Positions 23,013 through 64,000 are shown, counted from the first letter of the stretch. The stretch is DNA of 64,000 nt from a bacterium (GCA_021817145.1 JAKAVV010000007.1:66957-130956); one strand, 5' to 3'. Notes: a model not told the origin generated them from the letters alone. Numbers and translations: made by a program.

Positions 23013-23582
23013 TTATTTGCGGAAGACCCATGTTCCATAAGTTTTTTGTGTGCCCTGCATTCCATTATGGACCACATATTTTCCAGGGAATTCATGAGGG
23101 GCGACCCAAACATTGATGGTTTCCCCGTTAAGGAGGTAGAAAGGAGGTCTTGCGGTATGCGGCTCACGAGCGATGAAATCTCTTAAGACCCCTACTTTTC
23201 TAGCATCTGGGAGTTTTTCTACGGTAACATTTCTGACATTCCAAATTCTGATTCTGTGTCCCTGCCAGATGCCGGAAAAAAATCGAACAGGGGGGCGTTT
23301 CATGGCAAAGACCCATGTTCCATAAGTTTTTTGTGTGCCTTGCATTCCATTATGGACCACATATTTTCCAGGGAATTGGCGGGGGGCGACCCAAACATTG
23401 ATGGTTTCTCCATTAAGGAGGTAGAAAGGAGGTCTTGCAGTATGCGGCTCACGAGCGATGAAATCTCTTAAGACCCCTACTTTTCTAGCATCTGGGAGTT
23501 TTTCTACGGTAACATTTCTGACATTCCAAATTCTGATTCTGTGTCCCTGCCAGATGCCGGAAAAAAATCGAACAGGGGTTTT
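23013..23582. repeat. Tandem duplication, 2 x 285 bp
   Basis: Copy 1 spans about 23013..23297 and copy 2 about 23298..23582. For example gacccatgttccataagttttttgtgtgcc occurs at 23025 and 23310. Only a few substitutions differ (RQFPG versus HEFPG). Confidence 0.85.
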
Positions 23583-33099: not shown

Positions 33100-34059
33100 A
33101 TGAAAAGGTTGATATTGTTCTTTTTATGCGTAGTTTTTTTAGGCGCATTTGCTCCTAAGGCAAAAGCAGGAGTTAACGTGAACATAAATGTGAATTTATT
33201 CCCTCAGTATGATGGCTTTGTTTCAGGGTATTATGGAATCCCTGAACCTGAGGTGGTCTATTATCAGGATAGACTCCACAGCTGGCAGGATGCAGCTACT
33301 TTATTTTTCTTGTCTCGGCTGACAGGATGTTATCCTCGAGTAATTTTAGGTTGGAGATTGGGAGGGATGCCCTGGGTCAGTATTGTTGCAAGACTGGGTG
33401 TGCCCTATAATGTTTTTTACGTCCCCTATGGTCCTTATGGTGATTATTTCATGAATCATGATGGTCCTCCTTATGGGAATGCTTGGGGATACTGGAGGAG
33501 AGGTCCTCGTGGAAGATTTCTTGCGCTTAATGATCAAGCAATTCGAAATCGAGTTTCTTTAATTATGACTTCTCAGTATTATCACATTCCTGTGCAGCAA
33601 GAGGCGGGATGGATTACAGAACACAGGGTTGGTTTTGGGAGATTAGTCCAGGAGCATTGGAGAGAAAGGAACCCTGGGTTTCGATTTGATAGAAGCGCAT
33701 TCGAGCATGGAGCGCGGATCCCTTTTTATAATGGGCGTGGTCCGCAAGGGCGTGGAAACCGTGGTCCGCAGTGGCAGAGGAATCAGGGTCCGCAAGGGCG
33801 TGGAAACCGTGGTCCGCAAGGTCGTGGAAATCGCGGTCCCCAGGGGCATGGAAATCATGGTCCCCAAGGTCGTGGAAATCATGGTCCCCAAGGGCATGGA
33901 AATCATGGTCCCCAAGGGCACGGAAATCGTGGTCCTCAAGGGCATGGAAATCGTGGTCCTCAAGGGCATGGAAATCGTGGTCCTCAAGGGCATGGAAATC
34001 GTGGTCCTCAAGGGCATGGAAATCGTGGTCCCCAGGGGCATGGAAATCATGGACATTAA
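33100..34059 (+). CDS. Secreted protein with a C-terminal GPQG(H/R)GN(R/H) octapeptide repeat array
   Basis: A signal peptide and a roughly 200-aa globular region precede about 14 tandem 8-aa repeats. Confidence 0.5.
   Translation: MKRLILFFLCVVFLGAFAPKAKAGVNVNINVNLFPQYDGFVSGYYGIPEPEVVYYQDRLHSWQDAATLFFLSRLTGCYPRVILGWRLGGMPWVSIVARLGVPYNVFYVPYGPYGDYFMNHDGPPYGNAWGYWRRGPRGRFLALNDQAIRNRVSLIMTSQYYHIPVQQEAGWITEHRVGFGRLVQEHWRERNPGFRFDRSAFEHGARIPFYNGRGPQGRGNRGPQWQRNQGPQGRGNRGPQGRGNRGPQGHGNHGPQGRGNHGPQGHGNHGPQGHGNRGPQGHGNRGPQGHGNRGPQGHGNRGPQGHGNRGPQGHGNHGH
33721..34056. repeat. 24-bp tandem repeat array (about 14 units) encoding GPQGHGNR
   Basis: Units such as ggtcctcaagggcatggaaatcgt are directly visible and carry small substitutions (H/R, cct/ccc). 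Confidence 0.85.
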
Positions 34060-42090: not shown

Positions 42091-42912
42091 TTACAGGAAG
42101 AATCCTAATCCTACCCCTAGAGCGCTTCCTAATACAGGAGACATCCCGAGCGACCCTAGAGCAAATGGAGCAAAATCCGAGACCAGCCCTGGAACAATAC
42201 TGGTATAGCGAGAAGTGTTTAATTTGCTTAAATACTGTTCTGTCTGCTGGGTGCTCTGCGCCGCATTTTGTTCTAGCGAATTGAAGTAGTTCTGACTAAA
42301 AATAGATCCTGTATTATTAGCCCCAATCCCTGTTGAAATATTAGAGGGGTTAGATGAGTAGGATCCGCTTGAATAGGATCCACTTGAGTAAGATCCGCTT
42401 GAAACGGCAGGATTGTATGCCTCAGGACTACTTGAATTTTCAAAATTAGTGAACCCTAATAATGGATTGAAAACAGGGCTGATTCCATCACCATCTCCGT
42501 CTCCATCCCCATTCCCAGGGATTGTCCCTGTGGAATTTCCTTCAGAAGCCTGAACATTAACAGCCGGATTATTCTGCCAGTTCTGCCAAGTAATGAGTTC
42601 AGGTGGTTCCCCATTAGGAGATCCCGGCAAGTTTGTGCCAAGAGAATTGTGTCTGAGAGAATAAATATCTCGATTCATTTCCCCTAACTGCTGCCATAAT
42701 TGCTGGGTTTGTCCATAATTAACCTGTCCGGACTGCAGATCTGTTTGTTCAAGCTGCTGGATTTGAGAAAGTTCAGGATTTAAAACCTGCTGCTCAGCCT
42801 GGGTCAGGCTGCCATCTTGGGTGCCTGCTGCAATTCTCTGCTGAAACCACTGAATATTCGCGTTGAGGAAAGGAAGTTGTCCGCCGAAGTTGATGGTAAT
42901 ATTTCCGCTCAT
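42091..42912 (-). CDS. Q/N/S-rich low-complexity protein with a C-terminal hydrophobic tail
   Basis: GDGDGDGDG and (SSGSY)x3 repeats are present. The protein ends in PFALGSLGMSPVLGSALGVGLGFFL. Confidence 0.4.
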   Translation of the reverse strand: MSGNITINFGGQLPFLNANIQWFQQRIAAGTQDGSLTQAEQQVLNPELSQIQQLEQTDLQSGQVNYGQTQQLWQQLGEMNRDIYSLRHNSLGTNLPGSPNGEPPELITWQNWQNNPAVNVQASEGNSTGTIPGNGDGDGDGDGISPVFNPLLGFTNFENSSSPEAYNPAVSSGSYSSGSYSSGSYSSNPSNISTGIGANNTGSIFSQNYFNSLEQNAAQSTQQTEQYLSKLNTSRYTSIVPGLVSDFAPFALGSLGMSPVLGSALGVGLGFFL

Positions 42913-53560: not shown

Positions 53561-55219
53561 ATGTCAGTTGGACTTGTTCTTGGAACCAGAGAATCTTCTC
53601 CCCTTGAGTTTTGGGTCGGAGTGGAAGAAGGGGAGTATCTTCAGCTCGATGATCTGGTAACTGTTCAAACAGAAGTTCCTGGAAAAAATGAAACGGTCAC
53701 ATTTTATGGAGTAGTGGATTTTGTCGCTAAAAAATTTGAAGGGACGCAGTTTGACTCAGATACCGCTTTAGCAGTAGGCGGGGTTTTGCCTGTTACCCTT
53801 TCTCATGCAGCCCATGTGGTGGTTACCAGGATTGAACCTGAACGATACATCCCTCCCCATCCAGGAAATAAAGTTTACCGCTGCACAGGGGACCAGGTCA
53901 GCCATGGGCTTTATTTTGATAGAATGGAGAAAAAGATCCCTGTTGGATTAAGCAAAACAGGGGATCCGATTTACTTAAATTGGGAGTTTTTAAATGGAGA
54001 AAAAGGGGCTCATGTCAGTATTTCAGGGATATCGGGGATTGCCACAAAAACGACGTTTGCCACTTTTCTTTTGTACAGTTTATTTCACTCAGGAGTTTTA
54101 GGAAATGAAGCTCCTAATACCCATGCTATTATTTTCAATGTTAAAGGGGAGGATCTGCTTTTTTTAGATAGGAAAAACAAAAAGTTTTCGGAAGAAGAGA
54201 AAAAAAAGTATGAGAGATTGAATTTAAGCCTTTCCCCTTTTGAATCTGTCTCCTTCCATGCCCCTGCAAAACCTCATGAATCTCTTTTAATCCCTGCCAC
54301 AACAACAAGAACCCAGGATGTCAAACCATTTTTCTGGACATTAAGACAGGTTGCCAGAGAAAGACTGCTTGGGTATTTCTTTGAAGAAGGGGGGGAAGAC
54401 CTGGGAATGATGGAACACGCGATCTCTGTTTTAATGGAAAAGCTGTTCCAGTTAGCTCAAGATGATAAACCAGATGATACCCCTTTGGTTTCGCAGTCTG
54501 GTTCTATGATGAATTCTCTGGATGATTTGCTAAATGATTTGCGTGACCATCCGGATGACTGGTATGGTTCAACACAAGTCGCTTCTCAAACTCAAAGAGC
54601 AATTTTTAGAAGACTGAGCCAGGCTCTGCAGCATGGCGGTTCACTGGTTAGACCCCTGCCCCCTGCCAGCAAATTATCCGATTATCAAATCTCCTGGAAA
54701 GAAAAACAGTTGACTGTGATTGACCTGCATACCCTGCAGTCAGGAGCAAAAATGTTTGTGGTAGGATCTGTTTTAAAGAAAGTTTTCGAAGAAAAAGAAA
54801 AAACAGGGACTGCTCTTCCCCGCGTTTTTATTGTTGTGGATGAATTGAACAAATACGCTCCAAGAGATGGCTGGAGCCCGATTAAAAACAAACTGCTGGA
54901 TATTGCTGAAAGAGGGAGAAGTCTTGGGATTATTTTAATTGGAGCCCAGCAGACAGCCAGTGAAGTGGAGCGAAGGATCTTTGGAAATGCCGCGATTAAA
55001 GTGGCGGGAAGACTGGATGCTTCAGAAGCAGAACACTCGGAGTACGATTTTTTAACCACGACTTTCAGGAAAAGAGCGATCATGCTGAATCCAGGAACCA
55101 TGATTATCACTCAACCCGATGTTCCAACCCCTGTTTTGATCCAGACCCCTTTCCCCTTATGGGCAACTCGTCCTCAAGAAGCCGAAGTTCCTGAAGATTT
55201 GTTTGAAAAGATTTTTTAA
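53561..55219 (+). CDS. HerA/DUF87-family ATPase (HAS-barrel plus RecA-like core), solitary
   Basis: An N-terminal HAS-barrel-like region is present. The Walker B is VFIVVDELNKYAP and the C-terminal motif is ILIGAQQTASEV ... IKVAGRL. The Walker A is atypical, reading GISGIATKTT. Confidence 0.6.
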   Translation: MSVGLVLGTRESSPLEFWVGVEEGEYLQLDDLVTVQTEVPGKNETVTFYGVVDFVAKKFEGTQFDSDTALAVGGVLPVTLSHAAHVVVTRIEPERYIPPHPGNKVYRCTGDQVSHGLYFDRMEKKIPVGLSKTGDPIYLNWEFLNGEKGAHVSISGISGIATKTTFATFLLYSLFHSGVLGNEAPNTHAIIFNVKGEDLLFLDRKNKKFSEEEKKKYERLNLSLSPFESVSFHAPAKPHESLLIPATTTRTQDVKPFFWTLRQVARERLLGYFFEEGGEDLGMMEHAISVLMEKLFQLAQDDKPDDTPLVSQSGSMMNSLDDLLNDLRDHPDDWYGSTQVASQTQRAIFRRLSQALQHGGSLVRPLPPASKLSDYQISWKEKQLTVIDLHTLQSGAKMFVVGSVLKKVFEEKEKTGTALPRVFIVVDELNKYAPRDGWSPIKNKLLDIAERGRSLGIILIGAQQTASEVERRIFGNAAIKVAGRLDASEAEHSEYDFLTTTFRKRAIMLNPGTMIITQPDVPTPVLIQTPFPLWATRPQEAEVPEDLFEKIF

Positions 55220-55314
55220 GGGAATTTGAAAGGTTTTTAAAAGAAGGACACATAATATTTGGGAAAAGGATTTTATCTTTAAATGAAATTACTGAATGGA
55301 AAGGAGTAACAATC

Positions 55315-55530
55315 ATGGACGCTAGTGTGCCCTCCTGTAGGATGCCTGAAACTTGGTGCGGTTATAACTGCGATGCGCAATGCCTGCATTGTTGCCCTAT
55401 ACATGGCTGTTGTGATCATTGTAATGATGCTTGCATGTGTCGTTTGGGCAATTGCTGCTCAGGAATACCTCCAGGAACCATACACTCAACTGCAACTTCC
55501 TGTCGAAACAGCTGTCTTTGCCCTGATTAG
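55315..55530 (+). CDS. Very Cys-rich 71-aa ORF; alternatively the overlapping +1 frame 55325..55546 encodes a single-TM peptide
   Basis: TG-rich DNA gives Cys codons in one frame and a VVIIVMMLACVVWAIAA helix in the other. The true coding frame is unresolved. Confidence 0.2.
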   Translation: MDASVPSCRMPETWCGYNCDAQCLHCCPIHGCCDHCNDACMCRLGNCCSGIPPGTIHSTATSCRNSCLCPD

Positions 55531-55650
55531 AGCGTCTCCTGTTTAATTCAAAACTGCATGTTCTGCATCTTTCTCTTTTTCTTGTTTAAAGTTTCAGAAG
55601 GATTTAATCCTTTTTTGACAAAATTTTCGGGGTAGGATCTAGGAGGTGAT

Positions 55651-56616
55651 TTGGGGATCAGAACTCTCGATCTTTTTGCAGGGTGTGGTGGGAGCAGTCA
55701 GGGTGCCCGCTATGCAGGGTGTGAGATTGTTTCAGCCATTGATAAATGGAAACTGGCTGAGACTACTTTTAAGGATAATTTCCCAAAAACGCGTTTTTAC
55801 TGTGAGGAGATGGACTCCTTTACTTCAAAGCGGATACGCGCCGAGTTTAATAACATTGATTTGATTCTGGCGTCTCCTGAGTGTACAAATCATACCTGTG
55901 CTAAAGGAGGTGTTCGACGCTCTGAGGATATACGCTCTGAGGATAGCAGAAAGACGGCATTTCACGTTCTTAAGTTCGCCAAAGAGTTAATGCCTCGCTG
56001 GATTGTTATCGAAAATGTAACCCAGATGAGATCATGGTCCAGATATGCCGAATTTATCGAGAGTTTGCGCAGGGCGGGATCGGGGTATCAGGTCCGTGAG
56101 CAGGTTCTAAATTCGGCCGATTTCGGTGTGCCGCAGCGGAGGGTACGCCTGTTCATCCTTTGTGATCGAAAAAGAAAACCTCCTGAGGTGTTGCCGACTA
56201 GAAGAAGATGGGTCCCTATTGGTAAGTTTCTTGAAATGAACGGGAAATATTCATTAACGCCGCTTTATAGTAAGGGGCGTGCTGAGCGTACTATAGAACG
56301 TGCGAGACGAGCCATTAAGGAGCTCGAGAGAGATACACCCTTTCTCATTGTGTATTACGGCAACGATTCAGCGGGTGGCTGGCAGAGGCTGGATGCCCCG
56401 CTTCGCACGATTACGACGCTGGATCGTTTTGCCCTTGTCAGAAAGGAGGGTCGGTACTTAATGAGAATGCTGCAGGTTCCGGAACTGCAGGCTGCCATGG
56501 GATTTCCTGACAATTACAAATTTGAATTTGGGAGCAGGAGAGAAAAAATTCACTTACTGGGCAACGCCGTCTGTCCACCTGTTATGAAGGCGGTTGTTTC
56601 TCGCCTTACACATTGA
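55651..56616 (+). CDS. DNA (cytosine-5)-methyltransferase
   Basis: Motif I is LDLFAGCGG, motif IV is the PC-like ASPEC, motif VI is VIENV and motif VIII is VPQRRVRLFI. This gene marks the start of the higher-G+C island. Confidence 0.8.
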   Translation: MGIRTLDLFAGCGGSSQGARYAGCEIVSAIDKWKLAETTFKDNFPKTRFYCEEMDSFTSKRIRAEFNNIDLILASPECTNHTCAKGGVRRSEDIRSEDSRKTAFHVLKFAKELMPRWIVIENVTQMRSWSRYAEFIESLRRAGSGYQVREQVLNSADFGVPQRRVRLFILCDRKRKPPEVLPTRRRWVPIGKFLEMNGKYSLTPLYSKGRAERTIERARRAIKELERDTPFLIVYYGNDSAGGWQRLDAPLRTITTLDRFALVRKEGRYLMRMLQVPELQAAMGFPDNYKFEFGSRREKIHLLGNAVCPPVMKAVVSRLTH

Positions 56617-57305
56617 GGCAACTGGACGAGGCTAAGCTCAGGTTTTTCACCAGGAAATTGCTGGCCTGGTCCAGAGACAATCTTCGTAGCTATCCCTGGC
56701 GGAGAACCCGTAGTCCGTATCGCGTACTTATTGCGGAGCTCATGCTTCGGAGGACGCGGGCAGATCAGGTATTACCAGTCTATCGCCTTTTCATGCGTCG
56801 GTTTCCAACCCTGCGAGATTTCCTTGGCGGCACCGCGCAGGAGATACTAAAATTACTGAAACCGCTCGGGTTGCGCTGGAGGGCCAGGAATTTTATTTCC
56901 TTGCGCGATTATCTTGAAAAACATTCTATAAAGGTGTTGCCTCTCGAGTATCGCCTGCTGACGGCAATGCCCGGCATCGGCGATTATGTGGCCCGTGCCT
57001 TGCTTTGTTTTACAGGTGAATCGCCCGTTTACTTAGTGGACGTGAACGTAATCAGGCTTGTATGTAGATTCTTTGGATACCAAAATAATCCGGAACTCAG
57101 ACGGCGGAAATGGTTCCGTGAAATCATGGAGGCTTTGACCCTGCGGAAAAGGTGCCGCGAGTTTGTGCAGGTGACTCTGGATTTACCTGCCACGGTTTGC
57201 TTACCGAAAAAGCCAAAATGTGGGATATGTCCCTTGTTCCGGCGATGCTCTTATGGAGCTATGCTGTCGGTACCGCCGGATAACATGGGAAAGACCATTC
57301 TTTAA
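56613..57305 (+). CDS. HhH-GPD superfamily DNA glycosylase (EndoIII/MutY/Mig family) with a [4Fe-4S] cluster loop
   Basis: The helix-hairpin-helix is LTAMPGIGDYVARALL and the catalytic Asp region is LVDVNVIRL. The FCL motif is C-x6-C-x2-C-x5-C (CLPKKPKCGICPLFRRC). A TTG start overlaps the methyltransferase stop. Confidence 0.75.
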   Translation: MRQLDEAKLRFFTRKLLAWSRDNLRSYPWRRTRSPYRVLIAELMLRRTRADQVLPVYRLFMRRFPTLRDFLGGTAQEILKLLKPLGLRWRARNFISLRDYLEKHSIKVLPLEYRLLTAMPGIGDYVARALLCFTGESPVYLVDVNVIRLVCRFFGYQNNPELRRRKWFREIMEALTLRKRCREFVQVTLDLPATVCLPKKPKCGICPLFRRCSYGAMLSVPPDNMGKTIL

Positions 57306-57574
57306 GCGTTCGATTTCCCTATGCAGACGATTATATTCCTTGCTTCCACAACCACCCAGGCCAACTTGGATACCCATAGGCAATGAAGGAATAGTCTCGT
57401 CTGAGCAGGAATGATCGTTTAAAGCGTTTAATTCAGCAGGAAATCGGGAGGCCGGGAATACCTGAATCACCCTGAATGGAACGTGACCACTCCCCGGAAA
57501 AATCAGGTCAGTTCGCCGGCGGATTCAGGAGGTTGGACGTATTCCTGGCCAAGGAAATTGGAGGGTCATAGAGG

Positions 57575-58669
57575 GTGGCAGAAAACCCGGACGCGGCTTC
57601 ACTAAAATTTGCAGACCTCCTTTCCCAGAGGAAGTGGGAGAGTTATGAGCAATTTGTCTCCGAGGCGCCCGGATTCTATCAACAGGAACTCGAAGAGGAC
57701 ATCAAGCGCGAAGAAGGTCTGCGCGAAAAGATCAGGAAAGACCTTCTCCTTCACAAGTTCGAAGTAAAGAGCTACCGCGATCAGCTTGGTGAGGCAGAGA
57801 AGCTTCTTTTCTCAGGACGTGTTATAGCCATAGACGGGACCGTCTCAAAATTTAAAACCCTCTCAGGCCTGCGCTGCCAGATCGGCGTGGTGGCGGTAAA
57901 CTACTTCAATGATATGGTAAGGAAAGCTTACTTCATCTCAGAAGCCAGCCTCCGCAATGAGGAAAGCGAAGTCCTGGAAATCATCAAGAACCGCGAACAG
58001 CGCAATCGTCTCCTCTCTGACATGGTGGTCAGGGCACTTATGCTTTACCGCGAAAGGGAAGTTGCCATGAGGTCCGAGTATCTGGAAAGTTTCAGAATGC
58101 TGCACGGCCCTCTCCTTCCATTTGAGCTCATGACAGGCCTCGGACGCTTAAGGGCCCTGGAAGCAACGCTGGGGATACTCCAGTCGGTGGCAGCCGATCC
58201 AAAGTGCTTCAGCATTATTTCGGCCTCCACCCACGATGACTACCTGACGCTCGGGATGGCTCTTGAGCCGGGCGAATATATGCGGGACCCGAATTTCTCG
58301 CTCGGAGATGAGATAGCAGAAAACAAGGACTTCATGGTGGCTGAAAAATGGCGAGAATCTGAATTCGAAAGAGTAAAGGGTTTCTTGAGGACATTCGCTG
58401 ATAAGATTCACATAGGAATAATCCGGGTGTCCGGACACCCTTACGTGTTTTACGCCCACAAGGACACGTTTGATCTTGCAGTAGCCATTATCGCAAGAGA
58501 CTCCTTGCTCCAGAAGGAAAAAGGCTTCCCGTTGCTGGTGGACTATGCAGACACACTTTGCTCCGAATTCTTCCCTCCAGGGGACTTCACCGGTCAACTT
58601 TTATACAAACTTGCACAGGAAGGACACTTCCTTTCCGAAATAAGTGAAAGGGCTTTGCGTCAAAAATAA
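57575..58669 (+). CDS. NurA-like nuclease (putative)
   Basis: RVIAIDGTVSKF resembles the NurA catalytic 'hhAIDGS' motif. The ORF overlaps the downstream HerA-like gene by 26 bp. Confidence 0.45.
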   Translation: MAENPDAASLKFADLLSQRKWESYEQFVSEAPGFYQQELEEDIKREEGLREKIRKDLLLHKFEVKSYRDQLGEAEKLLFSGRVIAIDGTVSKFKTLSGLRCQIGVVAVNYFNDMVRKAYFISEASLRNEESEVLEIIKNREQRNRLLSDMVVRALMLYREREVAMRSEYLESFRMLHGPLLPFELMTGLGRLRALEATLGILQSVAADPKCFSIISASTHDDYLTLGMALEPGEYMRDPNFSLGDEIAENKDFMVAEKWRESEFERVKGFLRTFADKIHIGIIRVSGHPYVFYAHKDTFDLAVAIIARDSLLQKEKGFPLLVDYADTLCSEFFPPGDFTGQLLYKLAQEGHFLSEISERALRQK

Positions 58670-60368
58670 GGAGGACTTCATGACCGAAATCATAACAGGG
58701 GAAGCGCAGAAAGGTACCGATAAAACAACCCCCTCGCAGCAGCGAAAGGATCCCCTCGGGTTCGTGAATTTTGACGGGTCTTCTGGAGACAACAGCCTCG
58801 TCGATGTGCGGGTACCCCAGGATAGAATCGAAAGAATAAGGCGGGGGCAGTACGTGTTATTGATTGAGTCCAAAGGGGGAGATTCCTACCTGGGGCGCGT
58901 AACCAAAGGCCCCTTCTATAACCCGGACGCGGTCGGGCGTGACTCGGGCTTTGCGAAAGCCTCAATCCTCATGGGAGACAAAGTAAAATTCCTGCCGGAC
59001 TACCACGCAGTTTGCATGGTGGAAATCCTGGGAAGCGTATATCTGGACACCCTGTCGCTGAGCGGCCATACAACACGTCCCCTTCCAAAGACATTCGTCT
59101 GGGAACTCGATGAAAATAAGATTGAGGAATTACTGAATCTCAGGGGAAACATGTACCTGGGACACCTCGCGGGCTACGAGGGTGTCCGAGTTCACTTCCA
59201 GGCAGGCGACAAAAGGGTATTGCCTCGAAACGTCGGCATTTTCGGGACAGTGGGTTCCGGAAAAACCAACACCTCTCAGGTCCTGATCGAAGAGGCCTCT
59301 GCAGCAGGGTATGCTGTCGCCGTCCTTGACGTGGAAGGCGAGTACGTTTCCATGGACAGATCGAGCGAAGAGTTATCCGTCAGTCCCAGGTTGCGGGAAG
59401 CCGCCAGTCGCTTTGGAATTTCCCCTCGCGGAATCGACAGCCTGCGCGTTTACCGGGTGACGGGAACCGAGTCAAAGAGAAAGGATGCCATCGAGTTCTG
59501 CATAAAATTCGGAGACATTTCCCCGTACACACTGTGCGAGATAATGGGGCTCAACGAAGCTCAGGAACATAGATTTCTTGAACTCTACGACACTGCAGTG
59601 GAATCAGTGAGATCCGGCAAACAGCAACCCGGCGCGAAATCAAAGTGGGACAGACTCAAGGGTGGAGAAGCGGTGGTAGGGTTGGATCGCATCCCGGAAC
59701 TTACGTTGCAACTTCTCATTGATAAACTGCGAACAGACTTTCTCACGGGATCAAAGGGAGCCGACCGGTCCTCCTGGCTTAAGGTGAACCAGTTGCTCCA
59801 TAAACTGAAGCGATACCAGATTTTTGATACACACGAACAGGGATTGAACGTAAACGACCTTCTGACGCCAGGTCGGGTGAGCATATTTGATCTGAGCGAT
59901 TCCACCAACACGAGAATCAATAACATTGTCATCGCAGACATTCTCAGGCGCGTTTTTGATCACAAACTGAACAACGAAGATGCTCCTCCGACCCTGATCA
60001 TGATTGAGGAAGCGCATACTTTTGTAAGCCGCGAAAACGTATCGAAAATGGAATTTACAGTGGATCAGCTTCGGGAAATCAGCAGAAGAGGGCGCAAGCG
60101 ATGGCTGGGACTCTGCTTCATCTCCCAGCAGCCTGCTCATCTTCCTGACGAGCTGTACGAGCTCTGCAACACAAAAATCATTCACCAGACGACCGGCAAG
60201 AAAAACCTGGATGCCCTTCGCACTTCTGCAGGAAATGTGAACGAAGCGGTCTGGAGCGAAGTCCCGATCCTGGGCCAAGGTCGTAGCGTGATCATCAGCC
60301 CGCAGTTCACGCACCCCGTTCTCTGCGACATGAGGCCATGTCAGACGCACAGGGAATACACGGATTGA
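58644..60368 (+). CDS. HerA/DUF87-family ATPase
   Basis: The Walker A GIFGTVGSGKTNTSQ and Walker B LIMIEEAHTFVS are present. The C-terminal motif is CFISQQPAHL...CNTKIIHQ. Confidence 0.75.
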   Translation: MKGLCVKNKEDFMTEIITGEAQKGTDKTTPSQQRKDPLGFVNFDGSSGDNSLVDVRVPQDRIERIRRGQYVLLIESKGGDSYLGRVTKGPFYNPDAVGRDSGFAKASILMGDKVKFLPDYHAVCMVEILGSVYLDTLSLSGHTTRPLPKTFVWELDENKIEELLNLRGNMYLGHLAGYEGVRVHFQAGDKRVLPRNVGIFGTVGSGKTNTSQVLIEEASAAGYAVAVLDVEGEYVSMDRSSEELSVSPRLREAASRFGISPRGIDSLRVYRVTGTESKRKDAIEFCIKFGDISPYTLCEIMGLNEAQEHRFLELYDTAVESVRSGKQQPGAKSKWDRLKGGEAVVGLDRIPELTLQLLIDKLRTDFLTGSKGADRSSWLKVNQLLHKLKRYQIFDTHEQGLNVNDLLTPGRVSIFDLSDSTNTRINNIVIADILRRVFDHKLNNEDAPPTLIMIEEAHTFVSRENVSKMEFTVDQLREISRRGRKRWLGLCFISQQPAHLPDELYELCNTKIIHQTTGKKNLDALRTSAGNVNEAVWSEVPILGQGRSVIISPQFTHPVLCDMRPCQTHREYTD

Positions 60369-60372
60369 CAGG

Positions 60373-62625
60373 ATGAAGCAGCAGACAGAAACGGGCTCTG
60401 GTCAGGCGAAATTCAGGCCAAAGGCGCGGCTGGTTTCGATCCTCGGTGAGCATCTCATCCGGGATGGAACGGTTGGAATACTCGAGCTGGTCAAAAATGG
60501 TTACGATGCCGACGCATGCACGGTGAACGTGGAGCTACACGATCTCCAAAATCCCGAAGCAACGCGAATCATTGTAAAGGATGACGGGGTAGGAATGACC
60601 CTCAATCAGTTTTTGCATGAATGGCTGGAACCGGCATCTGGTCATAAGGAGCTCCAGAAGAAAAGAGGGCAGAGAACACAAAAAGGGCGCCTGCCTCTTG
60701 GCGAAAAAGGGGTAGGCCGGTTTGCCGCACACAAGCTGGGAAAATCCCTACACCTGATCACAAGGGCGAAGAATTCGCCGGTGGAGGTGGTGGTTGAAAT
60801 CGACTGGGGAGACTTTGATGATCCGGAAAAATTCCTCGACGATGTTACGGTGAATTGGGTCGAACGAAAGCCCGATGAATTTCCAGGAGATAGCAGCGGC
60901 ACATCGCTGGATATGCGCGGGGCGCGGGAAGCCTGGAGCCAGAAAGACCTCAAGCGACTTCATCGCGCCCTGACGACCCTTATGAGTCCCTTTAAAGGCC
61001 CGAAGAATTTCACCGTTAACCTCAAGTGTCCAGAATATCCACAGTATGAAAGCCTCGTGCCAGCAGCAATTTTCGACCGGGCTCATTACGTTTTTACGGG
61101 AATTATTGACGAACGCGGCACCCTCGAATACGAATACGCTTGCAGGCTACCCCAGTTCAAACCTCGCAATGAAAAGGGTAAAGTGAACCTTCCTCAATCC
61201 ATTAAAGGATGGCTTCCCTCCGATCGCCAGAGCCAATGCGGACCATTTATCCTTCAGCTTTACTACTGGGACCGCAGGAAAGAATATCTGGATCCAGTCG
61301 GCCTCAACAAGAAGGATATCGATCGAATCAATGGTGTCACAATATTCAGAGATGGAATCCGAATTCTGCCATACGGGGATCCAGAGGATGACTGGCTTGG
61401 CCTGAACGCGAGGCGTGTTGACATCCCAACAGAGCGTATCAGCACAGACGGTGTTGTTGCCTCAGTGGAAATAAATCAGGCAGAGAACCCGGGTCTGCGT
61501 GATAAGACAAATCGGGAGGGCCTGATAGAAAACGCTGCCTTCGTGGACATGAAGGATCTCGTGTTTGAAGCCATCACTACCGTATTCGAAGAAGAATGGT
61601 TCAGAGACAGACCCAGGAAAGAGAGCAATCCTGCAAGCACAGTAGAGGCAGCCAGTGGAAAGCTTAAAGAAAACGTCAGGGAGCTGTCATTGCAGAAGAG
61701 CAAAATAACAGAAATCGCCGGTCAGGTTGAAAGCATCGTCAAAGGCGGCGGGAAGATTCCGAAGCCCGTTCACGAACTGCTGGAGACCGTAAATCCACTG
61801 ATCATAACCACATCCACACTCGCAGCAAGTGCAAACGAGTTGAAGACCGCCCATGAAGAGATAGCTCGGGAGTTTGATCTTGAAAGAGATGTACTCCTCG
61901 GGATGGCTGGTCTGGGCCTTGCAGCCGAACGCTTTACCCACGAGTTTGCAAGGCTCACGAGGGAAGCTTCGCAGAATCTGAAGAAACTCAAGACATCGCT
62001 GGGACAGGCAAGTCCGGAGGCCTCAAGATACCTTGAAGCCCTTGAAGCAGCGCTCGATGCCCTTCGAAATGACATCCTTTCTCTCGGTCCCCTGTTCTAC
62101 GTAAGGCGGCCGACGAGGGAGAAATCCCTTTCCGTCAAAAGAGTTATAGATAACGTGTTGCTCCTCAATGCACAGCAAATCAAAGAAGCAAGGATACAGG
62201 TAGAAGTGAAGGAGAAGTTTCCCATTACAGTCGTCATGCGCGAAGGGCAGTGCACGCAGGTATTTAACAACCTCGTTGACAACGCAGTTTTCTGGCTTTC
62301 GAGAAAATCTCAGCAAGACGACAGGAAACTCAAAATCGTGATTGATGGCGACAGCCGTTCCGTCCTGGTCACGGATAACGGTCCCGGTGTCCTTCCGAAA
62401 TATGTCGACCGGCTCTTCCAGCCATTTTTCTCGACTAAACCGGAAGCCAGGGCAGAAGGAAGAGGCCTCGGTCTTTATATATCACGGGAAACATTGAAGC
62501 TTGTTGGAGGGACAATTTCTCTGACAGGCAGTAGTTCAGATGAAGAAGCATTCCCAACAGGAGCAGCGTTCGAGGTGATTTTTCCTGAGACAGCAACCCG
62601 CGAGACGGAAGGTCGAGGAGCATGA
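60373..62625 (+). CDS. Hybrid protein: N-terminal GHKL (MORC/Hsp90-type HATPase) domain plus C-terminal histidine-kinase core (DHp-like region plus HATPase_c)
   Basis: The N-terminal region has ILELVKNGYDADA (N-box), VKDDGVGMT (G1) and GEKGVGRFAAHKLG (G2). The C-terminal region has ERFTHEFARLT (candidate H-box), NLVDNAVFW (N), VTDNGPGV (G1) and GRGLGLYISRETLKLVGG (G2). Confidence 0.65.
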   Translation: MKQQTETGSGQAKFRPKARLVSILGEHLIRDGTVGILELVKNGYDADACTVNVELHDLQNPEATRIIVKDDGVGMTLNQFLHEWLEPASGHKELQKKRGQRTQKGRLPLGEKGVGRFAAHKLGKSLHLITRAKNSPVEVVVEIDWGDFDDPEKFLDDVTVNWVERKPDEFPGDSSGTSLDMRGAREAWSQKDLKRLHRALTTLMSPFKGPKNFTVNLKCPEYPQYESLVPAAIFDRAHYVFTGIIDERGTLEYEYACRLPQFKPRNEKGKVNLPQSIKGWLPSDRQSQCGPFILQLYYWDRRKEYLDPVGLNKKDIDRINGVTIFRDGIRILPYGDPEDDWLGLNARRVDIPTERISTDGVVASVEINQAENPGLRDKTNREGLIENAAFVDMKDLVFEAITTVFEEEWFRDRPRKESNPASTVEAASGKLKENVRELSLQKSKITEIAGQVESIVKGGGKIPKPVHELLETVNPLIITTSTLAASANELKTAHEEIAREFDLERDVLLGMAGLGLAAERFTHEFARLTREASQNLKKLKTSLGQASPEASRYLEALEAALDALRNDILSLGPLFYVRRPTREKSLSVKRVIDNVLLLNAQQIKEARIQVEVKEKFPITVVMREGQCTQVFNNLVDNAVFWLSRKSQQDDRKLKIVIDGDSRSVLVTDNGPGVLPKYVDRLFQPFFSTKPEARAEGRGLGLYISRETLKLVGGTISLTGSSSDEEAFPTGAAFEVIFPETATRETEGRGA

Positions 62626-63791
62626 AAGTCATCTTGCTGGATGATCACGCCGATACAATGGAGGAAGCTATCAGGTCCATTCGTGATTCGGGTGTGCAAT
62701 GTGAGCCCCTCAGGAACATCAGCGAACTCGAAAACTTACTGAACAAAGGTGAACCCTTTGATGGTGTAATCCTCGACTGGTTCCTGGACGACGAACCGGA
62801 CTCCAACCTTGCTAAAATTAGTCTGCAGAAGATAAGGGAGCATAGATTCGTCCCCGTCTTCGTTTACACCGAACACCGTACAGAATATGAAAGAGAAGCT
62901 GACTCGATTGATTTTCCTAGATCCTGCATAAGCTCCTTCAGCAAGAAAGCTTTGCCCGAGTCCAATCTTGGCGCGAAGATCAAGGAATGGCTTGACGGGT
63001 TTTTCGCAGGAAAAATTTCCAGAAGCTGGCGGAAAGCAAACCAGGGCGCAATCGAGAAGGTTCTCTATGAACTGGCCAGCATGGACGATGACGGAGTTGT
63101 AGGCTCCCTACAACGCATGATCCAGAGTGAAAATGGAGAAGCATACGACGTTGATCACGCCCTTGAGTTGCTGCACCGAATCAGCGTGCGAGTGCTGTCG
63201 AATGATGCGAAACTGCGGAGCATCCTTAAAAGTTGCTTAAAGTCCAAAACAAACAATAAAAAAGCGACTGAAATGAAAATTTGGCAATTCCACATGTATT
63301 ACCAGCCAGGCGGCGACATCGTCAGGGCTGGTGACATTGTTCAGAGCAAACGGGACAGTCATGAGGAAATGGAATATTTCGTAATCCTTACCCCGGCCTG
63401 CGATCTCGCCCAGTTTAAAACCACATACCTGCGTCTCGTGAGAATGATCCCACATAACTTCGCTGATGGAGAACCACCTCGACACCTTTATTTCCTCCCG
63501 TTCGTTCCGCTGGATGCCACGAAGATCGCTGATTTTGCAATTGACTTTCATCAGTCCTTTGCGGTTCGCAATGAGAGCATCGAACAGGAATGGCAAAAGC
63601 TACAGAAGGAGAAAGGTCAGAAAAAACTGCCAAAGATCAACATGGCTTACAGCCACAAGTATCAAGAGATGTCTGGAGAAGGAATCGTCTTGAAGTGCAT
63701 TGCCCGCCTGGATGATCCTTACAGATCCGATCTTTTCCAAAAATTCTCCTCCCACGCAAGCAGAATTGGAGTACCAGATGTGTCGAGCTAA
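62622..63791 (+). CDS. Receiver (REC)-domain protein with an uncharacterised roughly 260-aa C-terminal domain
   Basis: The N-terminus MKVILLDDHADTMEE...FDGVILDWFL has the acidic pocket and a phospho-acceptor Asp candidate. The start overlaps the kinase stop as ATGA. Confidence 0.5.
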   Translation: MKVILLDDHADTMEEAIRSIRDSGVQCEPLRNISELENLLNKGEPFDGVILDWFLDDEPDSNLAKISLQKIREHRFVPVFVYTEHRTEYEREADSIDFPRSCISSFSKKALPESNLGAKIKEWLDGFFAGKISRSWRKANQGAIEKVLYELASMDDDGVVGSLQRMIQSENGEAYDVDHALELLHRISVRVLSNDAKLRSILKSCLKSKTNNKKATEMKIWQFHMYYQPGGDIVRAGDIVQSKRDSHEEMEYFVILTPACDLAQFKTTYLRLVRMIPHNFADGEPPRHLYFLPFVPLDATKIADFAIDFHQSFAVRNESIEQEWQKLQKEKGQKKLPKINMAYSHKYQEMSGEGIVLKCIARLDDPYRSDLFQKFSSHASRIGVPDVSS

Positions 63792-64000
63792 CACGAATTC
63801 CAAATGAGGCTCACCATGAGGTGTGATCGTGAAATTTTCAAGCATTAAAATAAAACCTGACGTAAGTAACCTTCCTGACCTGCGGCATCCCTTCTGGATA
63901 GCATCCAGTCACCTGACGCAAACCGAAAGTGCCATCGATAGGTGGGCAGAGTATGAGCCAGCTGCTCTCACCCTCAAGACAAGCATGAAAACTCCAACTC

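Follow-up and report, generated by a model that had tools for sequence, protein, structure and literature searches.

The last part of a 64,000-nucleotide (nt) stretch of a bacterial contig (GCA_021817145.1 JAKAVV010000007.1:66957-130956; hereafter the window) is probably horizontally acquired cargo, which occupies positions 55,229-64,000 and about 0.4 kb more, up to a transposase fragment beyond the window. It lies at a strain-variable hotspot between a core gene for a HerA-like ATPase and the genes sbcD-sbcC, and the segment from about 55.65 to 64.1 kb would represent one recently co-transferred cassette of six genes, composed of two modules that share one C5 methyltransferase. The cassette is foreign to its host, dispensable and co-transferred. 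Module 1 consists of the methylase (with a glycosylase), a NurA-like nuclease and a HerA translocase; module 2 consists of the methylase, a paraMORC-histidine-kinase and a receiver-domain effector of the HEF_HK/Response_reg_2 family. The six genes are regarded as one cassette because they overlap or abut and because their order recurs at three other loci (L060, L061 and L062). As each module also occurs separately elsewhere, the cassette is best described as two recurrent methylase-dependent modules arranged around one methylase.

The abrupt shift in G+C content and third codon positions that a first-pass annotation had placed near 55.5 kb is borne out by three profiles. G+C is 0.410 at 1-55,550 and 0.502 at 55,551-64,000, and 8.45-kb segments of the left part reach at most 0.424 (standard deviation 0.007). 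In 1-kb steps, G+C ranges from 0.35 to 0.47 over the first 55 kb and from 0.48 to 0.54 from 56 kb to the window end. G+C at third codon positions (GC3) is 0.349±0.028, with a maximum of 0.436, in 42 non-overlapping open reading frames (ORFs) of at least 150 amino acids (aa) left of the block, which serve as the host set, and is 0.47, 0.56, 0.58, 0.61, 0.54 and 0.55 in the six block ORFs, in order. The strand-symmetrised tetranucleotide distance to the host mean, taken in 4-kb segments, rises from z≈0 to z = 12-14 at 56-64 kb and is back to 1-3 past 64 kb. The step far exceeds the window's own variation and is therefore real. A two-segment likelihood fit places the change point at about 56,020-56,060, inside the methylase ORF.

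A variable site between the HerA-like gene and sbcD-sbcC

The left anchor of the hotspot is a core gene encoding a 552-aa HerA-like ATPase (53561..55219, plus strand), which lies outside the island and is host-like in composition (G+C 0.43, GC3 0.37). Its product gives a weak profile match to HerA/mad8, is 90% identical in the metagenome-assembled genome (MAG) of a sister species and shares 45-59% identity with proteins of Thermus, Aquificaceae, Acidobacteria and Actinomycetota; BLASTP comparison of the 552-aa protein with the HerA protein of the island gives no significant similarity. Many conspecific assemblies encode an identical 552-aa protein, followed by at least five different right-hand contexts.

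In the 'empty' arrangement (allele A), the 552-aa gene is followed by a 0.55-kb A+T-rich spacer, sbcD, sbcC, a PilZ gene and an enoyl-CoA hydratase gene. The window's cassette follows the same 552-aa gene (allele B). Allele C carries 13.8 kb of cargo that reaches sbcD on one contig, and is a simple insertion between the same two genes. When the site is read outward from sbcD, further alleles appear: one has 3.3 kb of cargo including a toxin-antitoxin pair of the HepT/MNT type, and the cargo of another includes a 227-aa gene. Allele C (L011 11,669-21,659; L141 1-9,777) has a host-like G+C of 0.39-0.40; its products are a 642-aa N6 methylase, a STAND NTPase of 1,711 aa, a protein with an HD domain and a Dam-like methylase that is accompanied by a PD-(D/E)xK protein. 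The 132-aa PilZ gene between sbcC and the enoyl-CoA hydratase gene is present in the other alleles and absent in cassette-bearing strains; the difference is a 396-nt insertion or deletion (L032 at about 14,320 versus L017 14,328-14,726).

In the sister species, whose SbcD is 76% identical, the order of 552-aa gene, cargo and sbcD-sbcC is kept; the cargo there encodes PIN, MazE and Fic-like proteins, and the outer flanks consist of different genes. The linkage of the 552-aa gene to sbcD-sbcC is thus found in two species despite differing outer flanks (L007, L017, L027). It recalls the archaeal herA-mre11-rad50-nurA cluster; no NurA gene adjoins the host HerA-like gene.

Within the species, the flanks of the alleles are 99.3-99.7% identical, and the cassette itself is 99.99-100% identical in six independent assemblies. 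Alleles A and B differ at 0-2 positions per kb far from the site and at 4-9 per kb within 5 kb of it, and exchange of cargo by recombination through the flanks is suggested. The other alleles have a G+C of 0.39-0.41, foreign composition being confined to the allele in the window, so that composition alone would reveal only allele B. Among the features by which genomic islands are recognised, a deviating composition and variable presence between conserved flanks were found here, and a mobility signature was not. The horizontal acquisition proposed in the first-pass annotation is supported by presence and absence among conspecific strains together with the compositional step, and it survived a comparison with close relatives that asked whether the same block is syntenic and compositionally alike there.

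The structural left junction lies at 55,228/55,229 on the window. Alleles A and B are identical up to 55,228 (position 2607 of the longer sequence L001), nine nt past the stop of the 552-aa gene, and alleles B and C remain alike for about 60 nt further, to 55,288 (L001 2667). The left end of the inserted DNA (55229..55650, plus strand) has a host-like G+C of about 0.40, its segment 55,229-55,288 being common to allele C. The left boundary, earlier put at 55530..55650, is therefore displaced: composition changes at about 55.65-56.0 kb, downstream of the true junction. The expectation that the right boundary lies past the window holds, but the G+C-rich part ends merely about 100 nt further: elevated G+C stops at a window-equivalent position of about 64,100-64,120 and falls to 0.37 at L001 11,501-12,000. 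The block had also been credited with seven defence- or repair-like ORFs; it contains six full ORFs and the cut 5' end of a seventh, and 'repair-like' is better read as methylase-linked defence.

To the right of the cassette are an A+T-rich spacer, a transposase fragment of about 0.8 kb and an orphan Phd-type antitoxin gene, and the DNA there is near the host in composition. The window is identical to part of DAIBGO010000001.1, a 785-kb MAG contig at NCBI, and its last complete protein is encoded on 22 public contigs. On DAIBGO010000001.1, the 552-aa gene (about 198-200 kb, minus strand) and sbcD (755,374, plus strand) are about 555 kb apart. Inverted copies of the transposase fragment, about 0.8 kb long and 93-96% identical, are located at 188.4-189.2 kb and 753.5-754.5 kb, one just right of the cassette (L001 11,748-12,538) and one just upstream of sbcD (L032 8,106-9,166); sequence similarity to allele A starts again 223 nt before sbcD. 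An inversion of about 560 kb between these copies, occurring after the insertion, might have separated the right side of the island from sbcDC. The un-inverted order would be the 552-aa gene, about 9.1 kb, the fragment, 0.6 kb and sbcD, giving an island of about 10.6 kb. Most assemblies break at the transposase fragment, and the segment of about 560 kb is either truly inverted or the product of misassembly at the repeat.

Two rival accounts of the junction can be weighed against this evidence. The cassette might have resided elsewhere in the chromosome and been brought beside the 552-aa gene by the large inversion, as would fit with its not being followed by sbcD here, the latter sitting about 555 kb off, and with a second cassette-bearing MAG in which sbcD is on another contig beside unrelated genes. 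This origin is improbable, given that the first approximately 60 nt of the insert are common to allele C, a simple 13.8-kb insertion at the same site, that undoing the inversion restores the order of 552-aa gene, cassette, fragment, 0.6 kb and sbcD, and that the cassette of one assembly (L003) continues into the fragment variant found on the sbcD side. It is far less probable still that the step is an artefact, arising either from a chimeric contig in which two organisms are joined or from atypical codon usage in a native region. The source is indeed a MAG, and the contigs of several assemblies break near the right end of the cassette; however, at least five independent NCBI and ENA assemblies with sequence on both sides show exactly the same join of the 552-aa gene to the cassette, the block is absent from conspecific strains, and GC3 and tetranucleotides differ, not amino-acid content alone.

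The six genes of the cassette

The first gene (55651..56616, plus strand) encodes a C5-cytosine DNA methyltransferase of 321 aa, which matches Pfam DNA_methylase over its full length (1.6e-40), the PADLOC model DrmMII with 351 bits and TIGR00675 dcm with 113 bits. The motifs FAGCGG, PEC, ENV, QRR and GNAV are present in the translation. The 5' portion of about 350 nt (55,651-56,000) has a G+C of just 0.43-0.46, and the methylase GC3 of 0.47 is the minimum of the cassette; recombination at the 5' end or partial amelioration could explain this low-G+C start.

The methylase stop overlaps by 4 nt with a gene for a MutY/Mig-like HhH-GPD DNA glycosylase of 230 aa (56613..57305, plus strand). The protein matches Pfam HhH-GPD (3.4e-8), has the 4Fe-4S motif of EndIII, with a VDVNV motif and a cluster of four cysteines in the translation, and is devoid of the MutY C-terminal domain. 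It scores 155 bits with TIGR01084 mutY, under the cut-off of 286 bits, and 2.2e-33 with the PADLOC 'Type II nicking endonuclease' model, which corresponds to REBASE-type 'nicking' V genes. Enzymes of the Vsr and Mig types repair T:G mismatches that arise by deamination of 5-methylcytosine and are partners of C5 methylases. By analogy, the glycosylase is likely a repair partner of this kind, equivalent to a 'V gene'.

After a gap of 270 nt, a gene at 57575..58669 (plus strand) encodes a 364-aa protein with an RNase H-like fold that is classed as a NurA-like nuclease by structural match, the protein giving no direct Pfam or NCBIfam match. A search of 1.84 billion cluster representatives yielded 176 relatives. 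The AlphaFold2 model built from 42 homologues has a predicted local distance difference test (pLDDT) score of 93.1 and a predicted template modelling score of 0.89, and the best PDB matches by Foldseek are NurA proteins (2ygk_A, E 2.2e-6; the T. kodakarensis HerA-NurA complex, 9x1n_G; P. furiosus, 3tal), with E values of 2e-6 to 1e-4 across Sulfolobus, Thermococcus and Pyrococcus. Invariant residues are D87 (in AxDGT), E160 and D309, with D323 and D326 close to invariant. The Pfam NurA model does not match the window protein and matches just two of the 42 homologues (E 0.011). A profile search of PDB sequences with the family returned spurious repeat-protein matches only. In the window and at every informative locus, homologues of the NurA-like gene precede a HerA gene.

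The HerA/FtsK-type hexameric ATPase is encoded at 58644..60368 (plus strand) and is 574 aa long from a GTG start or 562 aa from an ATG at 58,680. Its gene is translationally coupled to that of the NurA-like protein. Pfam DUF87 (4.8e-21) and HerA_C match, as do PADLOC HerA models down to 2e-22 and, partially, the NCBIfam models CedD and HerA.

The fifth gene (60373..62625, plus strand) encodes a soluble protein of 750 aa in which a paraMORC-type GHKL module is fused to a histidine kinase. Pfam domains assign HATPase_c_3 (4.8e-20, residues 36-177), followed by a transducer-like region, to the N-terminal part, and a HEF_HK DHp domain (2.7e-3, residues 514-574) and HATPase_c (3.9e-22, residues 626-740) to the C-terminal part; the HEF_HK score of 18.6 bits is under the gathering threshold of 24.1. 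The N-terminus resembles the BbrUII/HgiDII restriction enzymes (3.4e-15). All of 24 homologues keep H523-E524-F525, D377-K378-x-N-R-E-G and the GHKL boxes in each of the two ATPase domains.

The sixth gene (62622..63791, plus strand) overlaps the kinase stop by 4 nt and encodes a 389-aa receiver-domain protein. Its N-terminal REC fold is joined by a helical linker to a conserved C-terminal α/β domain of 160 residues, which is presumed to be the output or effector domain. Pfam Response_reg_2 and Response_reg match weakly, the former with 18.2 bits against a threshold of 27. In the AlphaFold2 model (pLDDT 83.9), residues 1 to about 126 match the receivers of PhoB and PmrA by Foldseek with a template modelling (TM) score of about 0.75. 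K108 is invariant, with D8 and D52 close to it (≥90%); invariant C-terminal residues are G237-D238, T257-P-x-C260-D261-L, Y343 and P366-Y-R-x-D370. Fold searches with the full model were dominated by receiver domains. A PemK/MazF-like fold for the C-terminus was indicated by weak matches in a viral library (E 7e-3 to 8e-2); it is not claimed here because profile-profile comparison with four MazF-family sequences was negative (probability 0.8%). A receiver variant that is 98% identical (P0195) is found on short Logan contigs, suggesting that a slightly diverged copy of the cassette circulates somewhere.

Two small ORFs of the island are devoid of family matches. A doubtful one of 73 aa, hydrophobic, lies at 55,325-55,546 within the left end of the inserted DNA. 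The other follows the receiver gene; its 5' part is at 63823..64000 (plus strand), the full ORF of 90 aa extends to 64,095 (L001 11,202-11,474), and it is the last with elevated G+C.

Recurrence of the modules and comparison with known systems

Homologues of the kinase number more than 1,800 at E ≤ 1e-10, the nearest outside the species being 52% identical, and named sources include Chloroflexota, Terriglobia, Ignavibacteria and Bacteroidota. Neighbourhoods were counted at 80 metagenome loci with a kinase homologue, or, for receiver adjacency, at the 71 with enough sequence. A C5 methylase is located near the kinase homologue at 56-57 of the 80 loci, and a receiver-like gene lies directly downstream at 57 of the 71. 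A MutY-like gene is present at 11 of the 80, as counted with a single-pass profile; an iterative profile drifted into overlapping methylase ORFs and was discarded. Of the four loci with a NurA-like/HerA pair, L060 (G+C 0.57) has the six genes in the order seen in the window, and L061 and L062 (G+C 0.35) have that order with the glycosylase missing. Conjugative plasmids of Acaryochloris and Campylobacter carry the minimal trio of dcm, kinase and receiver. At L146, L149 and L150, a homologue of the NurA-like protein (30-35% identity) is encoded directly between a DNA methylase of the N6/N4 type and a HerA of the same subfamily, and no kinase homologue was detected at these three loci.

Module 2 corresponds closely to a gene family described previously. 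A HEF_HK/Response_reg_2 gene pair with 91.6% linkage in 644 regions, in a set that is about 70% Proteobacteria, was proposed from sequence analysis alone to be a cytoplasmic two-component system with a link to restriction-modification; C5 methylases often lie upstream of these pairs and Vsr genes downstream, a relation to paraMORC ATPases was noted and a regulatory role was suggested (Bellieny-Rabelo, Pretorius and Moleleki 2021; PMC8011034). The window pair has the kinase architecture, an adjoining receiver with the Asp pocket and Lys, and the C5-methylase linkage of this family. The kinase conforms to the predominant 'group 1' architecture of HATPase_c_3, HEF_HK and HATPase_c, being soluble and carrying His-Glu-Phe, the receiver lies directly downstream without another known domain, and an upstream C5 methylase and a gene for repair of 5-methylcytosine deamination are present in the cluster. 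The window cluster departs from the described pairs in that both Pfam signatures fall short of their gathering thresholds, in that a MutY/Mig-type glycosylase takes the place of Vsr as the repair gene, in that the NurA-HerA pair is inserted between methylase and kinase, and in its host, which belongs to an unclassified lineage. NurA, HerA and HhH-GPD glycosylases are not mentioned in that study (PMC8011034).

The NurA-like and HerA genes resemble archaeal and bacterial NurA-HerA pairs in the RNase H-like NurA fold, the conserved acidic residues and the coupling to a DUF87/HerA gene. They differ in that TM-scores are just 0.4-0.55 and identity is 11-13%, in that Pfam NurA is unmatched, and in their context, which is a DNA methylase on mobile cargo and not mre11-rad50. 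Systems in which a HerA ATPase has an effector partner are established as defences against phages, and 'capture' systems of the HerA/FtsK type have been put forward. Like SIR2-HerA, DUF4297-HerA and the HerA/FtsK 'capture' systems, the window pair combines HerA with an effector encoded just upstream, in a defence hotspot, and the PADLOC and NCBIfam HerA models match it partially. Here, however, the partner is NurA-like and neither SIR2 nor a Cap4-like nuclease, a methylase belongs to the module, and scores are 41-42 bits against cut-offs of 800-850.

ParaMORC GHKL ATPases are reported from restriction-modification contexts (Iyer, Abhiman and Aravind 2008, cited in PMC8011034). The kinase shares with the paraMORC/BbrUII/HgiDII group the N-terminal HATPase_c_3 with intact ATP boxes, a transducer-like Lys motif and the methylase neighbourhood; it differs in being fused to a complete histidine-kinase module and in that no nuclease domain was recognised in the polypeptide. 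The glycosylase, as a short 4Fe-4S protein of the MutY/EndoIII family whose gene overlaps that of a C5 methylase, is similar to Mig.MthI-type and Vsr partners, except that its mutY match is under the equivalog cut-off.

Other assignments were considered and rejected. The proposed kinase-receiver relay resembles Detocs, a defence system with a relay from a kinase to a receiver-effector, in idea only; no match to DtcA, DtcB or DtcC was obtained with PADLOC at E ≤ 0.01. The methylase scores best against the DrmMII model of class 2 DISARM, but drmA, drmB and drmC are absent and only the methylase matches. The mad8 model picks up both HerA-like proteins, and MADS is likewise a methylation-based system found in a hotspot; its operon has eight genes and includes an N6 methylase, whereas the enzyme here is a C5 methylase and no mad model besides mad8 matches. 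A paper on WonAB, flagged by a text match to 'paraMORC', proved irrelevant. With respect to type II restriction-modification, the methylase is present and no classical restriction-endonuclease domain was found in the cassette proteins; the NurA-HerA pair and the receiver C-terminal domain are candidate effectors.

Possible modes of action and neighbouring features

If the cassette confers immunity, the methylase would mark the host's own sites with 5-methylcytosine, and the MutY/Mig-like glycosylase would remove T from the T:G mismatches produced by deamination, limiting the mutagenic cost. The GHKL/paraMORC module of the kinase might engage unmodified incoming DNA, and this engagement could trigger autophosphorylation at His523 and subsequent transfer to Asp52 of the receiver. 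The receiver C-terminal domain would then act as the output or license one, and NurA-HerA might thread and degrade foreign DNA from ends or nicks. That all six genes constitute a single undescribed methylation-based immune system, in which restriction is gated by a phosphorelay and the kinase licenses NurA-HerA through a receiver whose Cys/Asp-containing output domain would be novel, is a tentative and rather unlikely extension of the two-module organisation.

A further possibility, itself somewhat doubtful, is that two or three independent systems (methylase with glycosylase, NurA-HerA, and kinase with receiver) stand side by side in the hotspot without functional coupling. The methylase-kinase-receiver set is found without NurA-HerA at about 76 of the 80 loci and on plasmids, no kinase homologue is detectable beside methylase-NurA-HerA at L146, L149 and L150, and the 270-nt gap separates glycosylase and NurA-like genes; mere juxtaposition is less easily reconciled with a single methylase for both modules, with the fused order at L060, L061 and L062 although host G+C there ranges from 0.35 to 0.57, with the location of NurA-HerA between methylase and kinase instead of beside the trio, or with six genes on one strand that share one foreign composition. 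It is also conceivable, at a clearly lower probability, that the cassette is not immune in function but is an epigenetic or repair module, composed of an orphan methylase, a regulatory signalling pair and NurA-HerA resection enzymes recruited beside the host HerA-like/SbcCD genes. The neighbouring repair genes (HerA-like, sbcDC), the role of NurA-HerA as a resection machine in archaea and the regulatory role suggested in PMC8011034 are consistent with this. Yet other strains and the sister species have cargo at this site that is typical of defence and toxin-antitoxin loci, strains with an empty site exist, so that the cassette is dispensable, both modules are consistently tied to DNA methylases, the kinase module being carried on conjugative plasmids as well, and the kinase N-terminus resembles bona fide restriction enzymes.

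Several points weigh against the preferred interpretation, an acquired cassette of two methylase-dependent modules in a cargo hotspot. As the NurA-like/HerA pair is beside the kinase at only four of the 80 loci, a functional link from one module to the other can only be conjectured. The donor lineage was not identified, the best homologues outside the species being 52% (kinase) and 44% (receiver) identical, apart from the 98%-identical receiver variant on Logan contigs. For the receiver C-terminal domain, profile searches of PDB sequences and Pfam gave no match and no fold was assigned. No tRNA or tmRNA was found in the window, no integrase next to the junctions and no att-like repeats that would explain entry. 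The inversion rests on a single MAG contig, and the second cassette-bearing MAG has yet another sequence upstream of sbcD, suggesting that the region is prone to rearrangement. A literature search on both modules returned in silico description only, with no experimental follow-up.

Other searches for signals of entry or expression gave little. A search for flanking repeats across the island yielded merely short matches at chance level, the only recombinase-type genes seen are the transposase fragment and an rve-family transposase, both to the right, no Rfam family is present in the window, and a promoter and terminator scan of 55.1-58 kb was no better than with shuffled sequence.

As a genomic island, the element is ordinary, a textbook case, and it is well documented, with at least five alternative cargos at one intergenic site within one uncultured species. 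The gene set is a new form of the HEF_HK/Response_reg_2 family, which is described only in silico, and no description of the methylase-NurA-HerA trio was found in the literature searched. If either module restricts foreign DNA, an effector that is controlled by signalling or based on NurA would join the restriction-modification repertoire, and a large family of 'orphan' two-component-like genes beside dcm, including those on Campylobacter and cyanobacterial plasmids, would gain a function. If the six genes form a single system, 'methylase-NurA-HerA' would represent a stand-alone, unrecognised class of ATP-dependent restriction system.

Further to the right, beyond the window, are three 72-nt tandem repeats, the rve-family transposase and a RADAR-like rdrB with an AAA_16-family ATPase gene. 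The A+T-rich 72-nt unit is present in three tandem copies at L001 13,029-13,269, in the interval that separates the rve transposase from the Phd antitoxin gene, and each copy opens a small reading frame beginning 'MEKINKIY...'. An 847-aa adenosine-deaminase-like protein matches PADLOC RdrB (1.2e-43) and is encoded next to the AAA_16-family ATPase gene (L001 18,135-20,678 and 20,734-21,170, both on the minus strand; window-equivalent 70,756-73,299 and beyond). This looks like a RADAR system of host-like G+C, about 7 kb past the window edge.

Three features were observed in the host part of the window. A 24-nt unit is repeated 13 times (86% matches) at 33,736-34,052, coinciding with a local G+C peak of 0.47. 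A 285-nt unit is tandemly duplicated with 97% identity at 23,023-23,578. At 42,091-42,912 (minus strand), a low-complexity ORF of 273 aa, rich in Q, S, G and N, contains GDGDGD and SGSYSS repeats and ends in a hydrophobic C-terminus.

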